Shown here one piece after another: positions 6,659 to 24,971 of a stretch of DNA of 64,000 bases (its first letter is position 1; every line of letters begins with the position of its first letter). The notes beneath the pieces were generated by a model. It made no database searches. It saw only the letters and a list, made by a program, of their open reading frames with translations, and was not told the DNA's origin. Both the position numbers and the translations under genes were made by a program. This stretch comes from Candidatus Hydrogenedentota bacterium. Lineage in GTDB: Bacteria; Hydrogenedentota; Hydrogenedentia; Hydrogenedentales; JAEUWI01. The stretch is from assembly GCA_034669905.1 (NCBI GenBank), contig JAXMOL010000001.1, forward strand, positions 128,001 to 192,000, in the 5' to 3' direction.

Positions 6659-6767
6659 TTCCCCTTAGTTTTTGTTAGAATACCGCGGCAGCGGGCCATA
6701 GCGTCCGCTGCCCTTTTTGTTCCACTCCATACGGTAGTTGTTTACAACCAGCTAAGCGATTTATATC

Positions 6768-7973
6768 ATGGCACCTGCAGATGAAGAGACGGACGTAACA
6801 TCGGAATCCATCGACGATGAAGTCGCATCCCCCGAAGAGGTGGTAGCGGACGAGGCAGGCGTCTCCGAAGAAGCAGACGGGCTCGACGAGTCCGACGAGT
6901 CCGACGAGTCCGACGAGTCTGATGACGCCGATGACGCCGATGACGCCGGTGAAGCCGACGAGTCCGATGAGTCCGATGAGTCCGATGAGTCCGATGAGTC
7001 CGATGAGTCCGACGAGTCCGACGAGTCCGACGAGTCCGACGAGTCCGATGAGTCCGACGAGTCCGACGAGTCCGACGAGTCCGATGAGTCCGATGAGGCC
7101 GATGAGTCCGACGAGGCCGATGAGTCCGACGAGGCCGATGAGTCCGATGAGTCCGATGAGTCCGATGAGGCCGATGAGGCCGATGAGGCCGATGAGTCCG
7201 ATGAGGCCGATGAGGCCGATGAGTCCGATGAGTCCGATGAGTCCGATGAGGCCGATGAGTCCGATGAGGCCGATGAGTCCGATGAGTCCGACGAGTCCGA
7301 CGAGTCTGATGACGCCGATGAGGCCGACGAGTCTGATGACGCCGATGAGTCTGATGCAGCAACCAAGACCACTGCTGCGGACGAGGCAGAAGACGAAGAC
7401 ACGATGGACGGCGATGTAGACGACGAAGAGCCGGAGGAGCTGGGTCGGGACGAAATGCGTCAGGCCCTCTACGCGCTTCTTTTCGCGAGTGACCGTCCGA
7501 TGAACGCCACCCGTCTGGCAGAAGCAATCGCCGATGAGATGGATCCCGAAGTGGTGACTATGATCATCGAAGAGCTCCGGGACGATATCAACGGCCGCGA
7601 CGAGCTCCCCTATTTTCTGAAGGAAATCGGCGGTGGCTACCAGTTGATGACCAAATCGGCCTATGCGCCTTTCATCCGTCGCCTTTACCAGATCAAAAAG
7701 AGCAAACGGCTCTCCAAGGCCGTGTTGGAGACGCTGGCCATTATCGCCTACAAGCAGCCCACGACCCGTGCTGAAGTAGAGGCCATCCGTGGGGTAAGTG
7801 TCTCCCACGCCTTCGAGCAGCTCCAGGAAAAGCGCTTTATCAAAGTATCCGGCGTCGCCGACAGCCCGGGCCGCCCGAAACTCTACCGCACCACGGAAGA
7901 TTTTCTCCTGCAGTTTGGTATGGGCAGCTTGAAAGAGCTCCCCACCCTGGAAGAACTTCAGGAAATGCGCTAA
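6768..7973 (+). CDS. scpB: SMC-Scp complex subunit ScpB with long acidic N-terminal extension
   Basis: C-terminal half has GGYQL, LSKAVLETLAIIAYKQPTTRAEVEAIRGV, PGRPKLYRTT..FL..FG..SLKELP; next to rluB. Confidence 0.93.
   Translation: MAPADEETDVTSESIDDEVASPEEVVADEAGVSEEADGLDESDESDESDESDDADDADDAGEADESDESDESDESDESDESDESDESDESDESDESDESDESDESDESDEADESDEADESDEADESDESDESDEADEADEADESDEADEADESDESDESDEADESDEADESDESDESDESDDADEADESDDADESDAATKTTAADEAEDEDTMDGDVDDEEPEELGRDEMRQALYALLFASDRPMNATRLAEAIADEMDPEVVTMIIEELRDDINGRDELPYFLKEIGGGYQLMTKSAYAPFIRRLYQIKKSKRLSKAVLETLAIIAYKQPTTRAEVEAIRGVSVSHAFEQLQEKRFIKVSGVADSPGRPKLYRTTEDFLLQFGMGSLKELPTLEELQEMR
6885..7355 (+). repeat. In-frame 9-bp tandem repeat (GAYGAGTCC/GAYGAGGCC), about 52 units, encoding (DES/DEA/DDA)n
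   Basis: Directly visible tandem array inside scpB. Confidence 0.95.
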
Positions 7974-7976
7974 GCC

Positions 7977-8690
7977 GTGGAACGCCTCCAAAAATACCTG
8001 GCCCATTGCGGCGTCGCCTCCCGCAGAAACGCCGAAAAGCTTATCGAAGCCGGCCGGGTCACCGTCAACGGCGAAACGGCGACCTTGGGGTGCACCATTG
8101 AACCCCGCAATGACCTCGTCTTACTCGACGGGGAGCGGGTCGGCCGCGAGGCCCCGGTCTATGTGCTGCTCAACAAGCCTCCCGACGTGGTCACCACGGT
8201 CAAAGATACCCATGGCCGGGAAACCGTGCTGGATTGTCTCGAAGGGGTTTCAGCGCGGGTCTATCCGGTAGGTCGCCTGGACATGGATGTGGGCGGCGTC
8301 CTGCTGCTCACCAATGACGGCGAGCTTGCCAACCGACTCATCCACCCGAGCTACCAGATACCCAAGGTCTACCTGGCCTGGGTATGGGGACGGGTCGACG
8401 ACGAATCTCTCCAGCAGTTGCGTGACGGCGTGGAACTGGAAGATGGCAAAACGGCGCCGGCCCAGGCCCGCATCGTGGAGCGCGGTAAACGGCAGACCCT
8501 TCTTCGTCTCCAGATCCATGAAGGCAAAAAGCGGGAAGTAAAACGGATGTGTGATGCCGTGGGCCACCGGGTGGATACCATGAAACGCATCGTCTTCTGT
8601 GGCCTCCAGGTGCGCGATCTGGAGCCGGGTGAATGGCGCTACCTCACCGACGAAGAAGTCCAGGCCCTCCGGGACGCGACCGGCAGCTAG
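7977..8690 (+). CDS. rluB: Ribosomal RNA pseudouridine synthase (RluB/RsuA family)
   Basis: S4 domain RLQKYLAHCGVASRR, LLNKP, catalytic GRLD, EGKKREVKRM; GTG start. Confidence 0.9.
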   Translation: MERLQKYLAHCGVASRRNAEKLIEAGRVTVNGETATLGCTIEPRNDLVLLDGERVGREAPVYVLLNKPPDVVTTVKDTHGRETVLDCLEGVSARVYPVGRLDMDVGGVLLLTNDGELANRLIHPSYQIPKVYLAWVWGRVDDESLQQLRDGVELEDGKTAPAQARIVERGKRQTLLRLQIHEGKKREVKRMCDAVGHRVDTMKRIVFCGLQVRDLEPGEWRYLTDEEVQALRDATGS

Positions 8691-13392: not shown

Positions 13393-14025
13393 TTAGAGGG
13401 CGGATAGCATGCGGACTATCTGCTCGTGCCCCTCTTTCCTGGCGACATCGGCTGCCGTGTCGCCTTCGTTGTTCTTGATGGCGGTGTCGGCATGGTGATC
13501 GAGCAGGACCCGCACGACGCTTTGGCCTCCGTTGTGGGCCGCCCGGTGCAGTGCCGTATCCCCGGTCTGGGTCTGTGCATTGATAGCGGCCCCCGCATCG
13601 AGCAGCGTCTGGACGACCTTCGCGTTTTCCCGCGCGGCCGCATAATGCAACGCGGTCCAATTGGCGCGGGTGCGTGCATCGACCTCGGCACCATGTTCCA
13701 GAAGAAAACTGACATCGTGATCATGGCAACGGGCGGCGGAAATGTGGAGGGGAGTCAAGCCCCAGTCATTCACCGCATTCACATCTGCCTGCCGCTTCAT
13801 CAGATAGGCCATAATATCGAGATTGCCCCATGCGGCCGCAGAGTGCAGGGGCGTCATCCCATATTCACCGCGGCTGTCTATGGGGATACCTTCATCCAGA
13901 AGTGCCGCCACATCGCGGGGCGTACCATCCGTGACGGCTTCATGGATGGTCTCAAAACGCACTTCCGGAGTCACGCAACTGCTGAGCCCCAAGGCCAGCG
14001 CACCTAGTAGGACACGTGATTTCAT
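13393..14025 (-). CDS. Ankyrin-repeat lipoprotein
   Basis: Start ATG 14025 after GGAAAGGAG; lipobox LSSC; about 5 ankyrin repeats G.TPLH.AA..G. Confidence 0.9.
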   Translation of the reverse strand: MKSRVLLGALALGLSSCVTPEVRFETIHEAVTDGTPRDVAALLDEGIPIDSRGEYGMTPLHSAAAWGNLDIMAYLMKRQADVNAVNDWGLTPLHISAARCHDHDVSFLLEHGAEVDARTRANWTALHYAAARENAKVVQTLLDAGAAINAQTQTGDTALHRAAHNGGQSVVRVLLDHHADTAIKNNEGDTAADVARKEGHEQIVRMLSAL

Positions 14026-14112
14026 GACCACTCCTTTCCGCCCCAACCCGGGGCAACCGGGTATCGGAGGAGACGCCATTGCATTCCGCACGCCTCCATC
14101 GCTCAACCGCTA

Positions 14113-15549
14113 CTAAAGCCCCAGCACACCCAGTATCTCCGGATTCTCCTCCTGCCACGTAACCACGTTGTGGCAACTCGTGCAGTCCTGGCTGATGATG
14201 TTTGCGCCATCGCGGCTGCTGTGACCATCATCGTGGCACCGAAAGCAGCCATCGAACTGGGTATGCCCATTGTGGTCCGGATAGGTCCCCCAACCAATAT
14301 CCATTGCGGGAAATATATTCTTCCGATAAATATCCTGAATCGCACGAATCGCTTCGTCCAGGGACTCGGCCCGTTCTGCCACAATCTCACCGTGGTTCTC
14401 CGCATAGAAGCCTTCCAGATGGGATTGGATGAATACCGTGGCATCTTCGGCATCAAGCGCCCCCTCCAGGGCGGCCAGTCCCGCCATTTTTACAGAGGGC
14501 AAGGTCTTATCAATCCGTCCTTCATCCAGGGCCTCGTTGAGTGCGGGCCCGGGCATCTTGAAGCGGTGGGTGGCCCGATTATGGCAGTCCGTACAGTCCA
14601 TTTGGCGGAGCGCCTCTTCAGGAATCTCGTTGCCCTCCTGAGAAAATCCGTCGGCATAATATTCGACGACCGAGCCATCCGGATTTACCGAGCGTATGTA
14701 GCCGATTTCCTCCCGTTTGTCGTCGGTGGAGTAATAGCGTATTTCCCGGCCTGGCGCCAGGTGCCACGTATGAATACCGGAGCCCGCGGCGTCGCGGCCT
14801 CCCACGTGCATGAGCAGGACGGACGTCAGGGGCGTATTGTTTTCGTCGGAGGCATAATCCGTGGTCACCTTCAGCACATCGCCCAAATCCATTTCGGGAT
14901 TGTGACACTCCCCGCAGGTTTCCTCCGCCTGGGCCAGGTTGTGAACGGGCACGGGTATGGGGGTTTCGTAGCTTCCGGTAAGCACCCCATAGACCTGATT
15001 GAGCCCATTCAACTTCGCATGGACCAGTGCGGGTACCCCCGGCCCGATGTGGCAATCCACGCACTTGACCATGGCGTGGGGAGAATTCATATGGGCGGTA
15101 AATTCAGGTTCCATCACCGTGTGACAGGTTGTCCCGCAAAACGCGACAGACTCCATATAGACGGCCCCCTCGTAGCTGATAAGGGAGATCAACATGAAGT
15201 TGAAGGCGGTCAGAAAACCGACGATGATGGCGAGCCGTTGAATGCGCGGGCTGTTGAAATCCAGTTTGATGTGGGCGGGTTCGTCGCTGTTGAGCGCCCG
15301 GCGACGGCGGCGGTCCCACCAGGCCCCCACGGGGATTATCAGCAATCCCAAGACGAATACGGCGGGCAACAGCAGATAGGTCAGAAGCCCGATGTAGGGC
15401 GAAAGGGGCACGCCTAAAAGGGTCATCACCATAAATACCAGAATGGCAAGGGCGCTCACGGTGGTCAGGCTACTACCGAATAGGGTAATCCAGTTACGCC
15501 AAATCAACTGCCCTGCGGCTCCCAGCCAGCTTTTCTCTGGACGATTCAT
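14113..15549 (-). CDS. NapC/NirT-family inner-membrane multiheme cytochrome c, ImcH-like (3 TM, 6 heme motifs)
   Basis: Three N-terminal TM helices; CGTTCH, CVDCH, CGECH, CTDCH, CFRCH, CTSCH; NapC-type 'FC..CH.M.PE...H..SPH..V.C.DCH'. Confidence 0.85.
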   Translation of the reverse strand: MNRPEKSWLGAAGQLIWRNWITLFGSSLTTVSALAILVFMVMTLLGVPLSPYIGLLTYLLLPAVFVLGLLIIPVGAWWDRRRRRALNSDEPAHIKLDFNSPRIQRLAIIVGFLTAFNFMLISLISYEGAVYMESVAFCGTTCHTVMEPEFTAHMNSPHAMVKCVDCHIGPGVPALVHAKLNGLNQVYGVLTGSYETPIPVPVHNLAQAEETCGECHNPEMDLGDVLKVTTDYASDENNTPLTSVLLMHVGGRDAAGSGIHTWHLAPGREIRYYSTDDKREEIGYIRSVNPDGSVVEYYADGFSQEGNEIPEEALRQMDCTDCHNRATHRFKMPGPALNEALDEGRIDKTLPSVKMAGLAALEGALDAEDATVFIQSHLEGFYAENHGEIVAERAESLDEAIRAIQDIYRKNIFPAMDIGWGTYPDHNGHTQFDGCFRCHDDGHSSRDGANIISQDCTSCHNVVTWQEENPEILGVLGL

Positions 15550-15590
15550 CCGTCTATTTTCTCCCCGCGTTCCGTATGCTTTTAGGGGAA

Positions 15591-15617
15591 GGGGAAGGTG
15601 AACGAGTCACCTTCCCC
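15591..15617 (-). terminator. Intercistronic 11-bp stem-loop between decaheme and NapC-like genes
   Basis: GGGGAAGGTGA-acgag-TCACCTTCCCC, no clear U-tract. Confidence 0.5.
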
Positions 15618-15639
15618 ACACTCCATTAACCTTGTGCTA

Positions 15640-17751
15640 TCACGGCCCCATATTGTGGACATCAATGACGGCGAAGTCCGCGCCGCTGTCGTGACAAACG
15701 GAGCAGGATTCTACCCGTGCACCGGGATCCGTATTGAGGATGGCGTGCACTTCGGCCACCAGACTATCGTGACAGGATGTGCAGGAGGCGCGCTCCGGCA
15801 ACTTCTCGGAGACGATTGTGGTGCCGTCAGAGATAACGGTCGAGATGGCATCCATGGACAGGGGAATCTCGAAAGAACCGTCCACGTGACACATCTCACA
15901 GTTTCTCAAATCACCGGGGAATTCGATCTCGGTGAAGTCGTGGGCCGTACCGCCGAATCCGAAGACCGTAAACGCCATCTCCAACTCGGAGCCACGGTGA
16001 ATCTTATGGATCATGTCTTTGAAGTTAATCGTCTCCGGCGGCAATTGCTCCTCCGTGCGCCGTGCGATATCGGTCCCATTGGGGTTGTGGCACATCACAC
16101 AGCTATCCACACCGACCCGAAGGCTTCCGTGGAACCGCAGCTCGCTGTGACAGGCGTTGCACTTGGCGTCATCGATGATCTGACGACGTTCCACCGGCTC
16201 ACTATTGTTCACCGTGAAAATCATCCGTCCATTGGACGCCGTCCCCTGGGTAATCGTCTCTCCCAGGAGGTCAAAGCGCACCCGACCTTCCATCGCTACC
16301 GCGAAGGTCGCTTCGCTGTCGACCGGCACCTGTTCTGTGAACGTGTAGCTGAAGGTGCCATCCCCGTTGTCCGTCGCGTTGGCCGCTGTGATCGTTTCGC
16401 GGAAAGCCTGTTCATAATCGCTTACCGGATAGGCCAGGGTCGCGGCAACGGTAGCCAGCTCGCTCAGGTCGCCATAGGCTTCCCCAGCGCCATTTTCCGC
16501 CGTGAAATTTATCGTAACTGCAGCACCGGTCTCCAGGGCTTCGGTGGTCACGCTATTCACGGTCAAGGACAGGCCCGGAGCAATCGGGCTATCGGTAGCA
16601 AGACGGTGGGCCTCCAGAATGGGGGCAGGCCCCGGGGCCGTGGGGGTGTGACACAGTGCGCACAGACTGTTGTCCACCTGCTGGCCCGCCACGTGGTTGG
16701 TGAAGCCCTCCGGCGTGGCCAGGGGCTCGCCAAACCAGGCGCGATCATGACAGGAAGCGCAGCCTTCGATGGTCGGTGTCGTCATGTAAATGTCGGACAT
16801 GGCCGCATCGGTATGACACGCCGTACAATTCTCCACCGGCTGGGGAAAATGCACGTCGGAATAGTCATGCACCGAATTGCGGAAGCCAATAATCTGATAG
16901 GCCACACCTGCCTGCACGCTTGGCAGACCGGCGCCCTGGTGAATCTTGTGGATCATCTCGGCAAAGTCAACGCTATTGCCGGAATTCGCATCCACGGAAC
17001 CCTGATTATGGCAGAGGATACACAACTGGACTTCCCGACGGGCACCGCCGTGGATTGCCAACCGGGTATGACATACGTTGCAGGTCTCGGTATTCACGAT
17101 CTCCCGTGAACCCAACGCTGTGCCTCCATCGGGACGGAAAGCCAGTACCGGATTGGCGGGATACTCTAATTCATCAATCGGGAACAACCGTTCCAACTGT
17201 CCCCCCACCTGATGCGTCGCATCCCGCGGGTAGTCGGCGGGCAGGCTGCTTGCAAAGCGGTAGGAAAATTCCCCGTCATCGCCCTGGACCACTCCGCCCA
17301 GTCGGGCGCTGTCGTAGGTCGCTTGCGTGCCCTCGTCACCGGTCCCCGCGGTCCCGTCGGGGTCTTCGGTTTGGGAAATGTAGCTCACATACCGCGCGCT
17401 ACTGCCTTCGGGCGGTGCCTGCTCCAGATAGGCCAGAATGAAACGGACGTCGGAAAGCTCACGAAGGGGAATCGGTTCACCCGCGTCATCCTGCGCCGTA
17501 AAGTGCACCACCGGGCGCAAGTCAGCGGGAATCTCGACCGACAGGATATCCACCTGTAGCCCCGGCGAAGTCGAAACGGGCGTTACCATCACCGGATCCG
17601 GGTCGGGATCGGGGTCGGGATCAGGGTCCGGATCGGGGTCGGGGGTCGTTATCAGAGGACACCCGGCCAGTAACAGGACCGCGAGCAACGGGGTCCAGAG
17701 GCCCCACCATCCCCCGTTGCGTTCATGTGTTTTCGGTGTATACCCAATCAC
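15640..17751 (-). CDS. OmcA/MtrC-family decaheme c-type cytochrome lipoprotein
   Basis: GTG start after GGGAGG; lipobox LAGC; (PD)n linker; 2x5 CxxCH motifs separated by beta-rich domains; 'MIHKIH' and 'R.IV....CN.CH..L..HGG' signatures. Confidence 0.92.
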   Translation of the reverse strand: MIGYTPKTHERNGGWWGLWTPLLAVLLLAGCPLITTPDPDPDPDPDPDPDPDPVMVTPVSTSPGLQVDILSVEIPADLRPVVHFTAQDDAGEPIPLRELSDVRFILAYLEQAPPEGSSARYVSYISQTEDPDGTAGTGDEGTQATYDSARLGGVVQGDDGEFSYRFASSLPADYPRDATHQVGGQLERLFPIDELEYPANPVLAFRPDGGTALGSREIVNTETCNVCHTRLAIHGGARREVQLCILCHNQGSVDANSGNSVDFAEMIHKIHQGAGLPSVQAGVAYQIIGFRNSVHDYSDVHFPQPVENCTACHTDAAMSDIYMTTPTIEGCASCHDRAWFGEPLATPEGFTNHVAGQQVDNSLCALCHTPTAPGPAPILEAHRLATDSPIAPGLSLTVNSVTTEALETGAAVTINFTAENGAGEAYGDLSELATVAATLAYPVSDYEQAFRETITAANATDNGDGTFSYTFTEQVPVDSEATFAVAMEGRVRFDLLGETITQGTASNGRMIFTVNNSEPVERRQIIDDAKCNACHSELRFHGSLRVGVDSCVMCHNPNGTDIARRTEEQLPPETINFKDMIHKIHRGSELEMAFTVFGFGGTAHDFTEIEFPGDLRNCEMCHVDGSFEIPLSMDAISTVISDGTTIVSEKLPERASCTSCHDSLVAEVHAILNTDPGARVESCSVCHDSGADFAVIDVHNMGP

Positions 17752-17892
17752 AACGACCTCCCTTCACAGAATCACTATCTGATTCTCGTAGTGCCAAGAT
17801 TCGCTCTCAGCGCGGCGATTAAACGGCTCCCGGGCTCTGGAAAGTGCCCACACGAACGACCTTGAGCATCTCCCTACTGTCATATAGAGGAA

Positions 17893-17910
17893 AGCTTAAG
17901 TCGTGCCAAC
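17893..17910 (-). promoter_or_regulatory. Candidate sigma54 (-24/-12) promoter for the decaheme/NapC operon
   Basis: Minus strand GTTGGCACGACTTAAGCT has GG-N10-GC spacing; AA in place of consensus TT before GC. Confidence 0.45.
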
Positions 17911-18015
17911 TTTCCTGATATACCCCGATCTCGTTCCGGACCCTGCGACATCGCCCAAAGAAGGGGCGATGCCATGGCATTGGCGGAACGTCCGGGTGTG
18001 CCAAGAGTGTCCATT

Positions 18016-18031
18016 AGTACAGTACTGTACT
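18016..18031. promoter_or_regulatory. Perfect 16-bp palindrome, candidate transcription-factor site
   Basis: AGTACAGTACTGTACT near the centre of the divergent intergenic region. Confidence 0.5.
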
Positions 18032-18081
18032 GCCCACAATTGCGCAAGTACCATCTTAAGCCGATGCGCGGAGGGAAGCCC

Positions 18082-18110
18082 TTGACAGCATACCCGAACC
18101 GTGATAGCGT
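18082..18110 (+). promoter_or_regulatory. Candidate sigma70 promoter for the porin-cytochrome operon
   Basis: TTGACA-17 bp-TAGCGT with extended -10 TGn. Confidence 0.55.
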
Positions 18111-18284
18111 GAGTGGACGTTACAGGCGGGCGCACCAGTGTCCTGTTGGCACGGAATTCTCTATAGCGACTTACAGATCGACGTACGCCACGTGATATTT
18201 CACGATACTCGGAAGTCTTTTACACGACCGAATCGGAGGTTGTCGTGTCAATGTGTCGGTACCACGTAGAGGGAATGGTGTGCC

Positions 18285-19325
18285 GTGAGCAATACAGCTG
18301 ACAAGCGAACTGGACGGGCCATCGCTTCGGGGATTCGCCGGGGGAGTTGGGTCCTTTGCCTGCTCGTTCTGGGAGTCTTTTCCCTGGGGGCAGACAGCTG
18401 TCAGAACTCTTCGCTCGGGCCCGGCGAAGTGGGTAGCGCCACCTGTCTGGCCTGTCACGATGGCCGTAGCGCCAGTAACCACCTGGAATTTCTGGACAGC
18501 CCTCACCAGGGTTTGTCGTGCGAGTCTTGCCATGGCCCCGGCCTGACCCACGTGCAACAGGGGGGCCGATTGGGGCTCTTCATCGACAATCCCAATCGTT
18601 ATCCCTTTGACACGCGGCACACGGCCTGCATCACCTGCCACAGCGACATCGTCTCGCCCGTTGGAATCGGTGCCCAGGGCTTTCTTGCGACCAACCATTT
18701 CCTGGAAGGCGCCGCAACCTGCACCGATTGCCACGATGTGCACAAGCAGGGGGGCATGCTGATCAGCAGCACGTCACCCGCACGGTTCGGGAATGCAAAC
18801 TACGCCACCCTCTGCGGGAGCTGTCACGTCGATCAAGTGGAACAATTCTCGCTGAGCGGCCATGCCCAAAAAGACGTCGCGACGTGCTCCAGTTGCCACG
18901 ACATGCACGCGGGTGACATGTTCCGTGCAGACCCCACAACCAATCGCCTTTGCCTCCAATGCCATCAGAGTTTTGCCCTGGGATTTCAACGGGATGTGGA
19001 CGTGGATTTCCATACGGGCGACATGCACCCCGTCGATCCGGCAGGTTCCGGTTCAAGCCGATGCACCGGGTGTCACTTGCCACCCAACGCAGGCAGCTCG
19101 GCGGTTCAGCCAAGCCATGATCACACCCTCTTTACAATCCCGCCGATTGCCAGTAATGACGCCGTCGCAATGGGTGTGGAACCCGCTCCCCCCAATTCCT
19201 GTGCAGGCGTAACGGGGTGTCATGATCCCGTACAGCCGAATTCCGGTCCCCCTTACGACGAAAATGACCTGGAAAGCAATACGCGACTGCAGTCGCTCTA
19301 CGAAATCATCGGAGCACGGCCATGA
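18285..19325 (+). CDS. Multiheme cytochrome c (8 CxxCH + 1 CX5CH), MtrA/DmsE-like N-terminus, possibly a lipoprotein
   Basis: CLACH, CESCH(GPG..H), CITCH, CTDCH, CGSCH, CSSCH, CLQCH, CTGCH, CAGVTGCH; hydrophobic signal followed by GADSC. Confidence 0.85.
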   Translation: MSNTADKRTGRAIASGIRRGSWVLCLLVLGVFSLGADSCQNSSLGPGEVGSATCLACHDGRSASNHLEFLDSPHQGLSCESCHGPGLTHVQQGGRLGLFIDNPNRYPFDTRHTACITCHSDIVSPVGIGAQGFLATNHFLEGAATCTDCHDVHKQGGMLISSTSPARFGNANYATLCGSCHVDQVEQFSLSGHAQKDVATCSSCHDMHAGDMFRADPTTNRLCLQCHQSFALGFQRDVDVDFHTGDMHPVDPAGSGSSRCTGCHLPPNAGSSAVQPSHDHTLFTIPPIASNDAVAMGVEPAPPNSCAGVTGCHDPVQPNSGPPYDENDLESNTRLQSLYEIIGARP

Positions 19326-20977
19326 AGGGTGTCCCAAGCCCACTATCCCCGAGGAGACCCTTTGGCAGAAAAATCGTTACGGAGCTGAACGCCCTGAACT
19401 CGTACCTGGGAAAAGGATTGGGGGCCATACTGCTTTGCCTGCTCCTGCTTACCTGCTCCCCCGCGCCGTGCTTCGCCGAGGCGGAAGACGGGGCGCCCGC
19501 AGCGGAGGCCACAGAAAACACCCAGGACGACACCGCCTCGGACACAGCGGAGGAGGAGGCCGTGCTGCCAACGGACTCGGACACTGCGGCAGGCAACGGA
19601 ACACGACGTTGGTACCGGGGCACCTTTGAAACGGAGATGGACACGGTTTTCTCTCGCAGCGACGAGGACATCGATTTCAGTCAGTTTCTCCGGTTAGAGG
19701 TAGACCCCCCTCAATACAGTCGCCTGCACCTCCGGGGCTCGCTCTGGCTACATCAGGATTTGAGTTCGGATAGGGACAAACCAAACACACTGCGGGACAT
19801 CAACGATGCTTCGAGTGCCGATGTTCAGGCGCGCTTGCTCTATCTCTACGCGAAGATCGACGATGCCCTGGGTACCAACTCCGAGTTAAGAATCGGACGT
19901 CAGCGGATCCAGGAGGGCGCCACCTACAATCGTATCGACGGGCTCTATGGCCGAAAGCGCGTCGGGCAGTGGGAAGGCTATGCCTTTGTGGGAGCCCGCG
20001 CCTCGATATACCGGGACACCACCGATGATCTGGTGCTCGGTGGTGGCCTTGCATGGATCCCCACGCCCCATACCCGTATTGCCCTGGATGGTTACTATGC
20101 GGAGGAAAGTCGCTACGGAGTATCCGACAGAAGTCGCCGGTTCGGGGGCTGGATACGCCCGGTGGCGTCGGAGCTTAATGACAGTAAGACGACCCTGAGT
20201 CTGTGGCACAATTTCGGTGTGAACACCCGGCTCTTCGCCCGTATCGGTATGTTGGGTAGTGACGTGGACGAGCTGTCGCTGAGTCTGAATGGGTACATAC
20301 CCCGGCTGGACCTCCTCTACGACCTCCACTACCGCCAGCTGTTTGAAACGACGGGCGACACCACGGCCGACCTCTCCCCCTTCTACCAGATTCTCGGTCA
20401 GTACCGGGAACACCAGACCCTCTACCTGGGCCTCCACCGCCCCTTGACGGAGTCGGTCACCCTTACCCTGGAAGGTGAGATTCGCAATGCAGAGAACGAT
20501 GACTTTTACTCGGGAAACCGAGACTATGTTCGGGTTGGCACCGTGTTGTACGTGGATGACGTCTTTCAGGAGGTCGACGTCTCGACTTCCCTGGAGTACT
20601 GGGATGTCTCTGGCGGTGAAGGCACCTGGACAGTGACCGGAGAAATAAGCCGCTCGTGGGGCACCGTGGACGGGCGCTTCGGCGTCGATTACGTCCGCTA
20701 CAAGGATCGTGTCGTGGAGTATGACCAGCGCGCGGCCCTGGTAGACGCGGCCCTGGTGGCCTTTGTACCCGGCATCTATCCCGGCTTCTCTTACGCGGCC
20801 CGCAGGGCCAGCACCCGGATTGTGGATACCCGGGAAAATGTCTACAGCGTGTATGCCGAGGTGGAGTGGGCCTTTCAGGAGGATCAGGATGTCTACACCA
20901 AGATTTCCTTTGAAGAGGACGATAGCCCCGATTCGCCCTATTGGCGAATCCGCGCCGGCTATCGGCTGCGTTTTTAG
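19322..20977 (+). CDS. Outer-membrane beta-barrel protein (porin of a porin-cytochrome complex)
   Basis: Signal peptide, amphipathic beta-strands, 'LRIGRQRI...IDG' motif, C-terminal YRLRF barrel signal; sits between multiheme cytochrome genes; ATGA overlap (true start uncertain). Confidence 0.8.
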   Translation: MKGVPSPLSPRRPFGRKIVTELNALNSYLGKGLGAILLCLLLLTCSPAPCFAEAEDGAPAAEATENTQDDTASDTAEEEAVLPTDSDTAAGNGTRRWYRGTFETEMDTVFSRSDEDIDFSQFLRLEVDPPQYSRLHLRGSLWLHQDLSSDRDKPNTLRDINDASSADVQARLLYLYAKIDDALGTNSELRIGRQRIQEGATYNRIDGLYGRKRVGQWEGYAFVGARASIYRDTTDDLVLGGGLAWIPTPHTRIALDGYYAEESRYGVSDRSRRFGGWIRPVASELNDSKTTLSLWHNFGVNTRLFARIGMLGSDVDELSLSLNGYIPRLDLLYDLHYRQLFETTGDTTADLSPFYQILGQYREHQTLYLGLHRPLTESVTLTLEGEIRNAENDDFYSGNRDYVRVGTVLYVDDVFQEVDVSTSLEYWDVSGGEGTWTVTGEISRSWGTVDGRFGVDYVRYKDRVVEYDQRAALVDAALVAFVPGIYPGFSYAARRASTRIVDTRENVYSVYAEVEWAFQEDQDVYTKISFEEDDSPDSPYWRIRAGYRLRF

Positions 20978-20994
20978 TGAGTAAAGGAGCAACC

Positions 20995-22068
20995 ATGACG
21001 CACAGGCCTGGATTTCGCGGGATCGCGTTGGCGATGATCGCATTGTTTGGCGTCACCGTTGCCTCCGATGCGGCCCTGTTCGGCCGATCGGGGAAATCGG
21101 TGGACCGCGGCCTGAAATCGGGCCACAATGCCCACATCGAGCAGCAATTGGACTGTGCCACCTGTCACGTGTGGGAAGAAAACCGGCATGTAATGCCAGG
21201 ACACAACCTGTGCAGTATATGCCACGAGATCGATGAAACTGCGACCGACAAGGCTTCCTGTAACTTCTGCCACACCCGGGAGGACCAAAGTGTCGGTCCC
21301 GTCATCAAACGGATGAGTGTGGAAACGATTTTTGGGCATGAAGCCCACCTGGACGTTTCTCTGGATTGTATGGAATGTCACAAGACGCCCGGTGAAATAC
21401 CGGATCTGCCGAAGGGGCCACTCATGCCCTGGTGCATGACCTGCCACGCGACGTCAGAACCACCCAAGCTGGAATCGGGCCTGCCCGACCGGGCCTTTGC
21501 GTCGAATGACTGTGCCGTCTGCCACCGCGAACTCAGCCTGGAAACGCGGCCCCAGTTTCGGGGCGGCGCCCGGATCGCCCACGATGCACCCGATATCTGG
21601 TTGAAGACCCACGGCCGGGAAGCCCAGTTTGACCCCCAGTATTGTGCGATGTGCCATGATACGGTCGCGACCTGTGAAGATTGTCACAGCCGCATGAAGC
21701 CCGACAACCACACGATAGCGTGGCGCCGTAAACCCCACGGATTGCGGGCGGTCATCGATCAGAACAACTGTGCGGTTTGCCATGAAGAAGATTCGTGTAT
21801 CAAGTGCCATGAAAAAACCAAACCGACCAGCCACCGGGCTGGATTCGGCGGCTCGCTCAACCGACATTGTGTCTCGTGTCACTATCCCCCCCAGGAAAGT
21901 TCCTGCACCGCATGTCACCAGAATATCGAGCACCGTAAGGCCCGCCGGTCGCCCCATGGACTGGGCATCTACCCGGTCAACTGTGCCGCCTGCCATCCGG
22001 GCGGCCTGCCCAACCGCGCGCCCCATCTTGTAAACAATTCGGTAAGCTGCCGGACCTGCCATGAATAG
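20995..22068 (+). CDS. Periplasmic 14-heme cytochrome c (two c7-like domains plus 'H..W...HG..A' repeats; ExtA-like)
   Basis: ATG 20995 after AAAGGAG; Sec signal; 14 CxxCH motifs in about 357 aa. Confidence 0.88.
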   Translation: MTHRPGFRGIALAMIALFGVTVASDAALFGRSGKSVDRGLKSGHNAHIEQQLDCATCHVWEENRHVMPGHNLCSICHEIDETATDKASCNFCHTREDQSVGPVIKRMSVETIFGHEAHLDVSLDCMECHKTPGEIPDLPKGPLMPWCMTCHATSEPPKLESGLPDRAFASNDCAVCHRELSLETRPQFRGGARIAHDAPDIWLKTHGREAQFDPQYCAMCHDTVATCEDCHSRMKPDNHTIAWRRKPHGLRAVIDQNNCAVCHEEDSCIKCHEKTKPTSHRAGFGGSLNRHCVSCHYPPQESSCTACHQNIEHRKARRSPHGLGIYPVNCAACHPGGLPNRAPHLVNNSVSCRTCHE

Positions 22069-22138
22069 CTTGTTACTTAGTTACCGCGTCTGCCCTGCGG
22101 GACTGCCCGCTCGGGTCGGCGCCAGGAAAGGAAAACCT

Positions 22139-22738
22139 ATGCATACGCTTTCACGGAATGCCCTCATCACCCTCAGCCTCCTGCTTGCTGCCAGCCTGGT
22201 CCAGGCCGAGGAGGCCAAAGACTTCATTGGCCATGACCAATGTAAAGTCTGCCACAACAAGAAGCCGGAAGGAGCCCAGTGGGACGTCTGGAAGGCGATG
22301 AAACACGCCAACGCCTTTGAAGCCCTCAAGAGTGATGCAGCCAAGAAAATTGGGGAAGAGCGGGGCCTCGCCAAGCCCCCCCACGAAGCCCCGGAATGCG
22401 TGAAGTGCCACGTGACGGGCTATAATCTGGAAAAAATGGAAGTGCCCGCCAAGATCAAGATGGCCGACGGCGTCCAGTGTGAAACCTGCCACGGGGCGGG
22501 GGCCGCGCATGTGGCCGACGGTCGCGATGTAATGTTTAAGAAGAAGACCGCAGACGAAATCGACTGGACGGCCCACCTGAAGAAGGTGGAGGAAGCGACC
22601 TGCCTGGCCTGCCATAACGAAGAGAGCCCCACCTGGAACCCGGAACAATTTACCCGGGAGGATGGCACGAAGGTGGGATTCGACTTTGAGCAGGCCAAGG
22701 AAATCGTTTCCCATCCCAACCCAACCAAGGCCAAGTAA
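22139..22738 (+). CDS. Cytochrome c554-family tetraheme periplasmic cytochrome
   Basis: ATG 22139 after GGAAAGG; signal peptide; FIG...CKVCH, W....HA.AF..L, CVKCHVTG, GVQCETCHG.G..H, CLACH. Confidence 0.88.
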   Translation: MHTLSRNALITLSLLLAASLVQAEEAKDFIGHDQCKVCHNKKPEGAQWDVWKAMKHANAFEALKSDAAKKIGEERGLAKPPHEAPECVKCHVTGYNLEKMEVPAKIKMADGVQCETCHGAGAAHVADGRDVMFKKKTADEIDWTAHLKKVEEATCLACHNEESPTWNPEQFTREDGTKVGFDFEQAKEIVSHPNPTKAK

Positions 22739-22910: not shown

Positions 22911-23900
22911 TCAGGGGAAATCACTTCCCGGCCACATCACGCTTTGATAGAACCCACTGGCAATACCCTCCTCGCCGGGTGCGAAGATGTGGTTCGCAAT
23001 GTGCAGAGCGATGCCTGCCGCATTGATGGGGAACTGGCCGCCGGTGGGCAGGGGCGCGCTTTCGAATACCACCGTACCCGTCGATTCTCCCGGATACTTG
23101 AAGAAGGCCACGTGCCCGTCGGCAAAGAGCACATTGGCACCACCCGGCACATGGTTGAAGCTCTCGGCCGCATCCGCAATGTTGTCAAGCATAATTGCCA
23201 ACGTCGATTGCGAAGCTGCCGACGCAGCAGGGTTATTGATGTCGGTTATGAAAAACCGTTCAACCCCTTCCCGGAGCCGCAGCGCGCGATCGTAGCCACC
23301 GGGCAAGGGCACCGCGAAGTCCCAGTCTTCCTCGACCCGATAGACATTCTCGTAGATGCGCGCACCGAAGTCCTGCACACTGGCGTAGAACGCGGCCGAC
23401 TGGGCCGGCGTTTGAACCATTTCGTTACTGATGGCCCATCCCAGGTAGGTGTAGGGATGACCCAGGAACTCACACGGCTCAATGGCGCCACTGTTGGTGA
23501 ACCCGGGCGTATCCACGTAATTATCGGAACCCACGTTTCCCCCATCATAGGTGCTCAGTGCATCGCCGGTCGTTGAGGCGGCACTCGGGCAAATGAGGAT
23601 GTTGGCATCATTCATGTATTCGGGATAGACCTGCTCTCCATCGAAGATGGTGTCGAGGGAAGAGACAGTACCATCGCATCGTCTGGTCTTAATGGCGGGA
23701 AACTTTTCTCCCCGGCTTTCGTTGGCATACATCTTAAAGATGATCCCAAACTGCTTCAGGTTATTCTGGCAGCTTGCCCGACGGGCTGCTTCCCGGGCAC
23801 GGGCCAGGGCCGGCAGCAGGATGGCTGCGAGAATTCCAATGATGGCAATGACCACCAACAATTCGATCAGGGTAAATCCCCGGGTGGAATGTTTCTTCAT
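22911..23900 (-). CDS. DUF1559 / prepilin-type N-terminal cleavage-methylation domain protein (H-X9-DG C-terminus)
   Basis: [60 protein letters not shown]; start ATG 23900 after AAGGAAG. Confidence 0.93.
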
Positions 23901-24013
23901 GAAATCGCTTCCTTGGAAATAGCCGTGCGGACGCACCACGGTTCCATACCCGTGTTGGTCGACGTTACGCACGGCAGACGATCGGACCCAAGATGGTCCG
24001 GCAAGTGAATAAA

Positions 24014-24502
24014 TCAGCGTGTCTGCATCCAAAGAGAAGCGGGTGGTGCCCGGGCCTGCCGGGCTGTGGAAACGCCCCGGCCCCGGTGGTCGACATAAGC
24101 CCCGTGTCCGACTGGGCCAACGTCTATGGCCGCCGTTGCCACCGTGCCCGCACCGACGTGCAAGACCATGGTGGCCGCACTGAAATAGGTGTTTTGCAAG
24201 GGCTCGGGTGTAGGCTCCGGCGTGTCCTCCCGGGCTGGAGTTGTGGGCTCCGGCGCGTGATGGTGGTGGGGCTCGCCCTCCCCATGGCGGTGCACCATGC
24301 CCCCGGCACCATGTTCGTGAACCAACGCGCCGTGGTGGTGGGGCGTGGAAAAGAGCGAGAATCCCGTAAGAATCCGAAACGCCAGCAGGACCACGACCAG
24401 GAAAACAATGTCGGAGAAGTCAGCGCTGCCCGCACGCGCCCTGGCCCCACGAAGCATCGTGGACACGGCAAGGGTAGTACGGGGGACAAATTTCAAGGTC
24501 AT
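24014..24502 (-). CDS. His-rich exported leader protein with C-terminal RAPP arrest motif (DUF2946/CruR-like architecture)
   Basis: ATG 24502 after AGAGAGG; hydrophobic segment, HHH..VHEH....VHRH....HHHH cluster, Pro-rich linker, QARAPP near the C-terminus. Confidence 0.65.
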
Positions 24503-24971
24503 GCCTCTCTGGATGGCGCACACGTGGTCTTCATGCGGGGCGGGTTGGTTTTTCCACTCTGCCGGGGTGGAACGGGACGGGCTCGCTGAACCACCCTCCC
24601 CTAAACTGTATCGGCACGTCAGCGATGCGCCGTGCTCCGACGCGAATCGCCACCGTATTCTGAAAAATTCGAAGGGGTGCCCACCGGGGTGTAACACAGC
24701 GCCCGGGTGGGTGCACTACCTTGTAGAACGCAGCGAAACTTTAGCGACGCTGCGGGGATAAATAACCCAATACAACACAAAATTGAATCGACACCATGCA
24801 CCCGCTTTCCGTACCGCGGGTTTCTCCAAACAACGCCTGCCGTATGCAGGCTAACGGGCAGACCAGTCCCTTCGACGTCTCTCCAGGCAGGGGTTCGGCC
24901 TATCTCCACCGACTCCCCTGTTGACGTGTGTACTGGCAACGCTTGACCAGCGTGTTGCTGCCCACATCCCC

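Follow-up and report, generated by a model that had tools for sequence, protein, structure and literature searches.

A candidate extracellular electron transfer locus of Hydrogenedentota that joins a probable anammox-type porin-cytochrome pair to MtrC/OmcA- and ImcH-type cytochromes

Known conduits and the Hydrogenedentota locus

Porin-cytochrome conduits for extracellular electron transfer are already in print, as are swapped surface cytochromes and genomes in which Mtr, porin-cytochrome (Pcc) and ImcH parts are mixed, and the locus reported here is not a new kind of mechanism. It occupies positions 14113-22738 of a 64,000-nucleotide stretch of DNA (hereafter the window) from a Candidatus Hydrogenedentota bacterium, and consists of six genes in two divergent groups that encode five multiheme cytochromes and a predicted outer-membrane beta-barrel. 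We consider it probable that the cluster encodes a complete outward chain of extracellular electron transfer, running from the quinone pool to acceptors outside of the cell. What is new here is a census of the phylum with a control for MtrB, the homology to Kuenenia, the replacement of an octaheme gene by mtrC, and an MtrC with a missing disulfide. Neither this cluster in Hydrogenedentota nor MtrC beside a porin other than MtrB turned up in our literature search, outside of which most subscription journals lay.

Described Pcc clusters combine porins of 18-22 strands with cytochromes of 5-14 hemes, and include a two-gene cluster of Kuenenia whose cytochrome belongs to a group of 338-344 amino acids (aa) with 12-14 hemes (Shi 2014, PMC4245776; here and below, statements from the literature refer to the accessible parts of the papers cited). 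The Kuenenia porin is 12-14% identical to GSU2644 (ExtB), GSU2726 (ExtE) and OmbB (Shi 2014 Table S1, PMC4245776). An ortholog of the anammox pair is expressed in electrode-grown Brocadia, as reported without a genetic test (Shaw 2020, PMC7188810; bioRxiv 10.1101/855817). In Geobacter, ExtB and ExtE have 18 and 21 transmembrane segments, respectively (PMC6148476). For the Mtr systems, a survey that required clustered mtrC, mtrA and mtrB lists three other phyla (Baker 2022, PMC8805035); because only clustered mtrC, mtrA and mtrB were searched for, clusters of the kind described here would not be listed in it. Closest in overall content is Desulfuromonas acetexigens, which has MtrC-family, Omc, Pcc-type and ImcH/CbcL proteins in one genome, with mtrC sometimes apart from its porin genes (Shaw 2025, PMC12133095). 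There, however, mtrAB is present and the parts occupy separate loci, whereas here MtrAB is absent and the parts share one locus in 30 genomes. A note made earlier from the sequence of the window had presented the locus as a mix of the Geobacter and Shewanella paradigms. Mtr and ImcH parts do indeed stand together in it, but such mixing has already been published for Desulfobacterota (PMC12133095).

The six open reading frames (ORFs) predicted in the earlier note are present, and in order along the window they carry 5+10+8+0+14+4 = 41 CxxCH motifs, or 43 with two atypical motifs, in agreement with the 42-43 that had been claimed. Counting over 14113-22738 in six frames gives 42 CxxCH motifs, whereas 200 mononucleotide shuffles average 0.45 and never exceed 3. 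The source genome is 7.44 Mb and 95.7% complete, and each cluster gene is present in it as a single copy. An ORF with 13 motifs on contig C14 was considered as a paralog and ruled out as a simple-repeat artefact; short-unit repeats similar to those that yield this false ORF are seen in the window, where a low-complexity (GLI)n repeat lies on the minus strand at 6675-8006.

The barrel and the 14-heme cytochrome

The porin gene (19322-20977, plus strand) encodes a 551-aa protein that contains zero heme motifs and for which AlphaFold2 predicts an outer-membrane barrel of 22 strands (mean pLDDT 77, 49-sequence alignment), as the earlier note had supposed. Between the signal region and the first strand the model has only a short disordered linker of ~45 acidic residues, predicted at low confidence, and no plug domain. 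The protein has no sequence match in Pfam, NCBIfam or PDB, and none of 49 porin homologs is matched by an NCBIfam porin model. Structural neighbors of the model are generic large barrels (FimD, Z 19.1, root-mean-square deviation (rmsd) 4.9, 333 residues aligned), with MtrB (6r2q_B) at rank 21 (Z 15.3, rmsd 6.5, 341 aligned). No Geobacter-type Pcc porin is among the structural matches listed by Foldseek and VIA-align, an absence that excludes nothing. One homolog, P0025, carries the NCBI name TonB-dependent receptor, an assignment that was ruled out on the grounds of no N-terminal plug and no Pfam match.

That the barrel is itself MtrB was ruled out by sequence (blastp to Photobacterium MtrB, E 0.78). 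In its solved structure MtrB has 26 strands. By prediction, the 22 strands of the barrel compare with 28 for MtrB (Shi 2014, PMC4245776). Photobacterium MtrB scores 26 bits against a wide porin profile over one biased 93-residue stretch, an unrelated ORF reaching 22 bits, and sub-threshold PF11854 matches are found on 2 of 50 distant porin homologs; the barrel and MtrB may share a remote ancestor. The porin profile search returned 528 clusters at E <= 0.001, of which 48 are at E <= 1e-30, with named distant members that include Brocadiales, a Planctomycetota bacterium, SAR324 and a deltaproteobacterium. Titles of the 26 porin-bearing genome loci refer to Hydrogenedentes, Hydrogenedentota or Hydrogenedentales in 17 cases, two of the closest included, to Nitrospirales or Nitrospiraceae in 5, to the FCB group in 1 and to no taxon in 3, consistent with the lineage that the earlier note had guessed. 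Identity values for some of the loci with other titles coincide with those of loci in the phylum set of the window, and the deviating titles therefore look like labelling differences.

Adjacent to the porin gene is a gene for a cytochrome c with 14 CxxCH motifs (20941-22068, plus strand), 375 aa as listed, with its true start probably at the later Met17. Besides the 14 motifs the protein has 14 further His residues, 13 invariant and 1 nearly invariant among 34 sequences, that would fit a wire of bis-His hemes. Its structure prediction is of low confidence (mean pLDDT 57), and a fold search with the model returned nothing at E <= 0.001, the best match being ActA of alternative complex III at E 0.03. 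By sequence, in contrast, it has a traceable relative, as it is 34% identical over 354 columns (E 9e-59) to CAJ74788.1 of Kuenenia stuttgartiensis, a protein of 338 aa with 14 CxxCH motifs.

The relationship to anammox bacteria extends to both genes. The alignment of the window porin and its homologs matches that of the Brocadiales porins by hhalign over 416 columns (P=100, E 6.4e-49), and the gene that comes after the Brocadiales-group porin is a 14-heme homolog in 13 of 16 metagenome loci, the remaining 3 of which end at the porin. These Brocadiales homologs have 13-14 motifs where complete and ~30% identity to the window protein, and the cytochrome of one such locus, L067, clusters with CAJ74788.1. 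Across two phyla, and at a porin identity of 23-26%, barrel and 13-14-heme cytochrome genes stay together. In P0127, from a Planctomycetota-like porin group, the two are joined by a frameshift-like fusion, porin then 14-heme homolog (E 6e-62). With 22 predicted strands and 14 hemes, the window pair falls within the published Pcc range (Shi 2014, PMC4245776).

Judged by sequence, the porin and 14-heme core probably corresponds to the published anammox pair kuste4024/kuste4025, with the tag identity of CAJ74788.1 taken from its size and heme count. The readable supplements of Shi 2014 and Shaw 2020 contain no link between kuste4025 and CAJ74788.1 and no fold change for the pair, the accessible text of the Shaw preprint names kuste tags without accessions, and the L067 porin, in three start variants, has no entry in the protein collection. 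Given the Brocadiales and Kuenenia homology, and because the Kuenenia porin is only 12-14% identical to the Ext and Omb porins, the core is probably an anammox-type pair and not an Ext homolog, and the label 'Ext-like' given in the earlier note is best replaced. Like the Kuenenia cluster, the window has a porin gene followed by a 14-heme cytochrome gene, both homologous to their counterparts; unlike it, the window adds to the pair a lipoprotein hexa/octaheme cytochrome, a c554-family cytochrome, MtrC and an ImcH-type protein, whereas the anammox cluster is described as having two genes and no outer cytochrome. The resemblance to the Geobacter ExtABCD, ExtEFG and OmbB-OmaB-OmcB conduits is in layout, with a barrel in the 18-22 strand range between large multiheme and lipoprotein cytochromes. 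Gene order and heme counts differ, and the Kuenenia porin identities indirectly suggest a distance between the window pair and these conduits.

Modelling of the porin together with the 14-heme cytochrome gave a complex score of 0.60, compared with 0.00 for the best of 3 controls. In the benchmark for this procedure, whose counts hold only roughly with our own alignments, 116 of 157 solved complexes and 2 of 215 mismatched pairs attain the mark, but only 18 of the 157 complexes, and both mismatches, do so with 0.60 or less. At least 42% of contacts recur between runs, and the partner pLDDT is 64. The idea that the cytochrome sits in the porin thus gains weak support from the score, while the interface itself was not returned.

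In six of the Brocadiales loci (L059:10664-12659, L061, L064-L066 and L073) the pair is followed by a gene for a NapC/NrfH-like tetraheme protein, and three of these also have a 484-aa pentaheme protein that is NrfA-like by eye.

Flanking cytochromes and their distribution in the phylum

The 703-aa product of the second minus-strand gene (15640-17751) is, by sequence, a true MtrC/OmcA-family decaheme lipoprotein. It scores 445.9 bits against TIGR03507, for which the curated cut-off is 209.3, contains two PF22113 domains (Pfam), and has MtrF as its closest PDB match (3pmq, E 3.3e-35), so that the identity proposed in the earlier note is upheld. The CxxCH motifs lie at 224-364 and 531-683, giving 5+5 hemes in two pentaheme domains with a heme-free domain between them. 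A lipobox, LAGC at 28-31, is followed by an Asp-Pro linker, and Cys31 is the sole non-heme Cys. The CX8C pair of domain III, which in Shewanella MtrC limits flavin-driven peroxide formation in air (PMC9973256), is missing from the window protein, and no Cys pair is found in domain III of 41 out of 42 distinct homologs. MtrC is predicted to act as a surface terminal reductase. Parallels with Shewanella MtrCAB and OmcA are the MtrC-family decaheme lipoprotein itself, the logic of a porin, a periplasmic wire and a surface cytochrome, and the nearby gene for a quinol oxidase. The differences are that the source genome has no detectable MtrB and no MtrA at cut-off, that the CX8C pair is absent, and that a 14-heme cytochrome and an ImcH-type protein are found here in place of decaheme MtrA and CymA. 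Among relatives, L106 (G012:C400) has a tandem duplication of mtrC, and in L090 (G106:C34) mtrC is apparently frameshifted.

Located at 14113-15549 on the minus strand is the gene for a 478-aa inner-membrane multiheme cytochrome with 5 CxxCH motifs and 1 CX3CH. Homologs of ImcH have been described as having three N-terminal transmembrane helices, an adjacent CX3CH, 5-9 CX2CH motifs and NapC/NirT similarity (Zhong and Shi 2018, PMC6295460), and the 478-aa protein fits this pattern by Pfam, motif and hydropathy: three helices are predicted at 31-49, 53-71 and 103-121 (hydropathy scan only), CGTTCH is at 138, and PF03264 (NapC/NirT) matches at E 5.5e-7. TIGR03153 (NrfH) gives 55.9 bits, under its cut-off, and a PDB search returned 0 matches. 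Compared by published description, the protein resembles ImcH of Geobacter sulfurreducens in its three helices, in a CX3CH beside the membrane domain with five further CxxCH motifs, and in NapC/NirT similarity; it differs in having five CX2CH motifs versus six and 478 aa versus 495-519 (PMC6295460). The architecture given in the earlier note is therefore supported. Its view of ImcH as a Geobacter part is too narrow, as 71 homologs in 12 phyla were surveyed, with no Hydrogenedentes listed among them (PMC6295460). In that survey mtrAB or mtoAB is never beside imcH. The 5+1 heme motif count is identical in 120 of 120 homologs listed (the best 120 of 7283); named homologs from outside Hydrogenedentes among these are Acidobacteriota, and no Geobacter sequence is among the 120. 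From its family, the protein is a predicted ImcH-type menaquinol oxidase. Directly downstream of its gene, at 13393-14106 on the minus strand, is a gene for an ankyrin-repeat protein (Pfam Ank matches) that adjoins the ImcH-type gene in the window and in L001, L003, L025, L078 and L079, but in 0 of 47 other mapped loci, and that is probably an accessory limited to the closest relatives.

The first plus-strand gene (18285-19325) encodes a 346-aa predicted lipoprotein cytochrome with 8 CxxCH motifs and a possible CX5CH at 306-313, making it an octaheme or possibly a nonaheme protein. Scores of 71 bits against TIGR03508 (cut-off 192) and 94 bits against NF041028 (cut-off 325), together with a match to PDB 6r2q_A at E 3.8e-8, suggest that it is distantly MtrA/DmsE-like. 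Its counterpart is a hexaheme in many relatives, and the signal region of its homologs closes with a Cys in 23 of 23 (by eye), often in a non-canonical box. The last gene (22061-22738, plus strand) encodes a 225-aa tetraheme cytochrome with 4 CxxCH motifs and a signal peptide, which belongs to the c554 family (PF13435, E 3e-19; NF043010, 52.6 bits, under cut-off) and is a predicted periplasmic shuttle. Many relatives, though not all of them, also have the c554 gene next after the gene for the 14-heme protein.

In order to assess how widely these genes occur, 135 genomes of the phylum were searched; the resulting counts carry no P value, as related genomes are not independent. The porin was found in 61 genomes (36 of 66 genera) and the 14-heme cytochrome in 58; MtrC was found in 57, with 56 of these above cut-off, and the ImcH-type protein in 59. 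All three of porin, MtrC and ImcH are present in 52 of the 64 genomes that have any of them, with none in the other 71 of 135. Porin and MtrC are shared by 55 genomes, with the porin only in 6 and MtrC only in 2, and in 30 genomes the porin, MtrC and ImcH genes are within 15 kb of one another. The genes are therefore conserved and linked across relatives, so that the lack of conservation which the earlier note had named as a refutation is not seen. MtrB (PF11854) was found in 0 of 135 genomes, whereas the same search recovers MtrB in a Photobacterium mtrCAB replicon at E 2.3e-153. TIGR03509 (MtrB/PioB) gave no match in the 1 genome searched, and no control matched it either. MtrA/DmsE is above cut-off in 1 of 135 genomes; this gene (L111, G032:C522) is on a 2.3-kb contig with its downstream gene off the contig, so an mtrAB pair or contamination is possible. 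No other MtrA-sized decaheme was found in the 95.7% complete source genome.

Gene order separates a fixed unit from movable neighbors. The fixed unit is the hexa/octaheme, porin and 14-heme genes, with the hexa/octaheme before the porin in 23 of 26 loci and the 14-heme after it in 24 of 26; the two loci with no 14-heme gene after the porin end at the porin. Around this unit c554, mtrC and imcH are placed in at least 6 orders or orientations. In L097, mtrC is directly before the porin and 14-heme genes and the octaheme gene is missing from its usual place, a likeness to Geobacter conduits, in which the surface lipoprotein is prone to non-orthologous replacement (PMC6148476). In L015, the octaheme position is occupied by a cytochrome with at least 21 motifs. 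Two clusters (L017:3154-8329 and L026:9243-11228) contain CbcL/MtrH-like proteins of 11 and 19 hemes that include a cytochrome b561 domain (Pfam), a second quinone-linked type; proteins similar to these in size only are seen in L076, L083, L099 and L100. Cytochromes with 8-9 hemes and Ig/PKD domains lie beside the cluster or mtrC (L020:6427-9003, with similar proteins of 858-898 aa in L100, L105 and L108) and are possibly a further surface cytochrome. Gene trees were built from 25 loci, leaving aside two duplicate loci and a third whose mtrC is frameshifted, and share 10-12 of 13-16 supported splits. This is consistent with joint inheritance and is no proof of co-evolution, as kin share splits.

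The two gene groups are divided by a control region (17752-18284) in which the sequence predicts a sigma54-like site facing mtrC at about 17892-17909 on the minus strand, a sigma70-like -35/-10 pair facing the octaheme gene at 18082-18110 on the plus strand and, near 18016-18031 of the window, a perfect 16-bp palindrome. The two promoter-like elements are partly conserved in three close relatives, and RpoN is present in the source genome. Across loci, with a pattern chosen after viewing the alignment and in related genomes, sigma54-like sites are found upstream of 10 of 45 mtrC genes (1.1 expected by shuffling), 5 of 38 octaheme genes (1.0 expected) and 5 of 37 imcH genes (0.9 expected), and of 0 of 39 porin genes. 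The upstream regions concerned are those of L001, L003, L025, L078, L079, L084, L085 and L088-L091.

Beyond the cluster, a DUF1559 prepilin-like gene (22911-24032, minus strand) has just upstream of it a His-rich ORF (24014-24697, minus strand) that ends in RAPP. Elsewhere in the source genome are further multiheme loci, named by eye: a 5/4/10-heme group (G000:C44:21932-33899), an octaheme with a tetraheme (C36:27915-32215), an octaheme-TPR protein (C14:116081-118477), an ActA-like pentaheme near a heme-copper oxidase (C26:52258-63858) and a tetraheme beside a molybdopterin enzyme (C6:86506-89195). Half or more of the sequence words searched for were found in 4 of 14 DNA runs, from plastic and sediment metagenomes of 2 studies; small shares are no evidence. 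No RNA run was among the matches listed, which speaks neither for nor against expression.

Electron flow and alternative readings

In the outward chain that we favor, the ImcH-type protein would oxidise menaquinol, and the c554 tetraheme would ferry electrons across the periplasm to the 14-heme cytochrome, which is predicted to be threaded into the barrel from the periplasm and to carry them through the outer membrane. At the surface the octaheme lipoprotein, the MtrC decaheme or both would take up the electrons and may pass them to Fe(III) or Mn(IV) oxides, humics or another cell. Among the genes of the source genome are those for futalosine-type menaquinone synthesis and cytochrome c assembly, for two heme-copper oxidases and for four molybdopterin enzymes, a set that would suit a versatile respirer.

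Several observations weigh against this chain or its MtrC component. A lipobox-like Cys is present in 19 of 24 homologs of the 14-heme protein and not in the window copy, and the sidedness of the flanking cytochromes is ambiguous. Linkage of porin and MtrC is seen in only 33 of the 55 genomes that share them and not in the other 22, many assemblies being fragmented; in the window the two are on opposite strands, and L101-L110 show mtrC with no porin nearby. Between gene trees, distances correlate moderately (Spearman 0.36-0.67). Near the Brocadiales pair, neither MtrC nor a full-length ImcH-type gene was found in the flanks, many of them short, of 16 out of 16 loci. MtrC lacks CX8C while the genome has two heme-copper oxidases, and its mode may differ from that of Shewanella MtrC. 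Finally, Pcc clusters also occur in organisms that are not reducers of solid Fe(III) or Mn(IV) (Shi 2014, PMC4245776).

Within the outward reading, the odds that MtrC docks stably on the conduit are about even. The counterpart, to which we give somewhat under an even chance and which alters only the claim of a hybrid complex, is that the conduit is the three-gene core and that MtrC is an OmcA-like accessory charged by transient contact. It is just as plausible on the available evidence, as the core is the fixed unit while mtrC moves and is unlinked in 22 of 55 genomes; in addition, the Brocadiales pair has no MtrC nearby, so the conduit does not need MtrC, and Shewanella OmcA is described as acting through MtrC. 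Pulling the other way are the almost perfect co-occurrence of MtrC and porin and the locus in which mtrC takes the place of the octaheme gene, given that non-orthologous swaps of the surface lipoprotein are usual in Geobacter-type conduits (PMC6148476).

Electrons could also run inward, from Fe(II), reduced minerals, cathodes or partner cells to quinone reduction and the terminal oxidases. Porin-cytochrome chains are described as reversible, the genome has an ActA-like pentaheme beside one of its two heme-copper oxidases, Cyc2 homologs have led to the proposal that Hydrogenedentota metagenome-assembled genomes may represent iron oxidisers (PMC9769843), and loss of the CX8C switch could reflect that no flavin is reduced. 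We regard this direction as unlikely, since ImcH homologs are reported solely from Fe(III) reducers, and mtr/mto clusters of Fe(II) oxidisers tend to be without mtrC (PMC4245776), but mtrC is kept here. Improbable too is a role with no transfer across the outer membrane, whereby the cytochromes would be a periplasmic store or would feed a reductase for periplasmic or soluble substrates, with the barrel as some other channel or anchor. The generic transport barrels that are the only fold matches, the weak support for the complex, the NrfH/NrfA-like genes (named by eye) after the pair in several Brocadiales loci, and the fact that lipoproteins can face the periplasm would all accommodate such a role. 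It sits poorly, however, with a barrel gene bound to the same 13-14-heme gene in two phyla at so low a porin identity, with a barrel that has neither plug nor transporter domain, and with the co-occurrence of this barrel and an MtrC at cut-off level.

Taking the outward chain as the better reading, we propose tentatively, and at less than even odds, that Hydrogenedentota is an overlooked electroactive phylum, in which an MtrC with neither MtrAB nor the disulfide would dock on an anammox-type 22-strand porin and 14-heme wire fed by ImcH, and sometimes by a CbcL-like protein, giving a third, chimeric conduit in ~40% of the phylum's genomes. If true, a widespread uncultured phylum would join the organisms with the capacity to use minerals or electrodes in respiration. 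Such conduits would be missed by any screen that depends on clustered mtrCAB or on known porin models, as no Pfam or NCBIfam model matches the porin. Several questions would also become testable: whether MtrC can work without MtrAB; how a genome that encodes oxygen reductases tolerates an MtrC devoid of the CX8C switch; and what role is played by the anammox porin and 14-heme pair, which here shares its locus with genes for a predicted quinol oxidase and a cytochrome of surface type.

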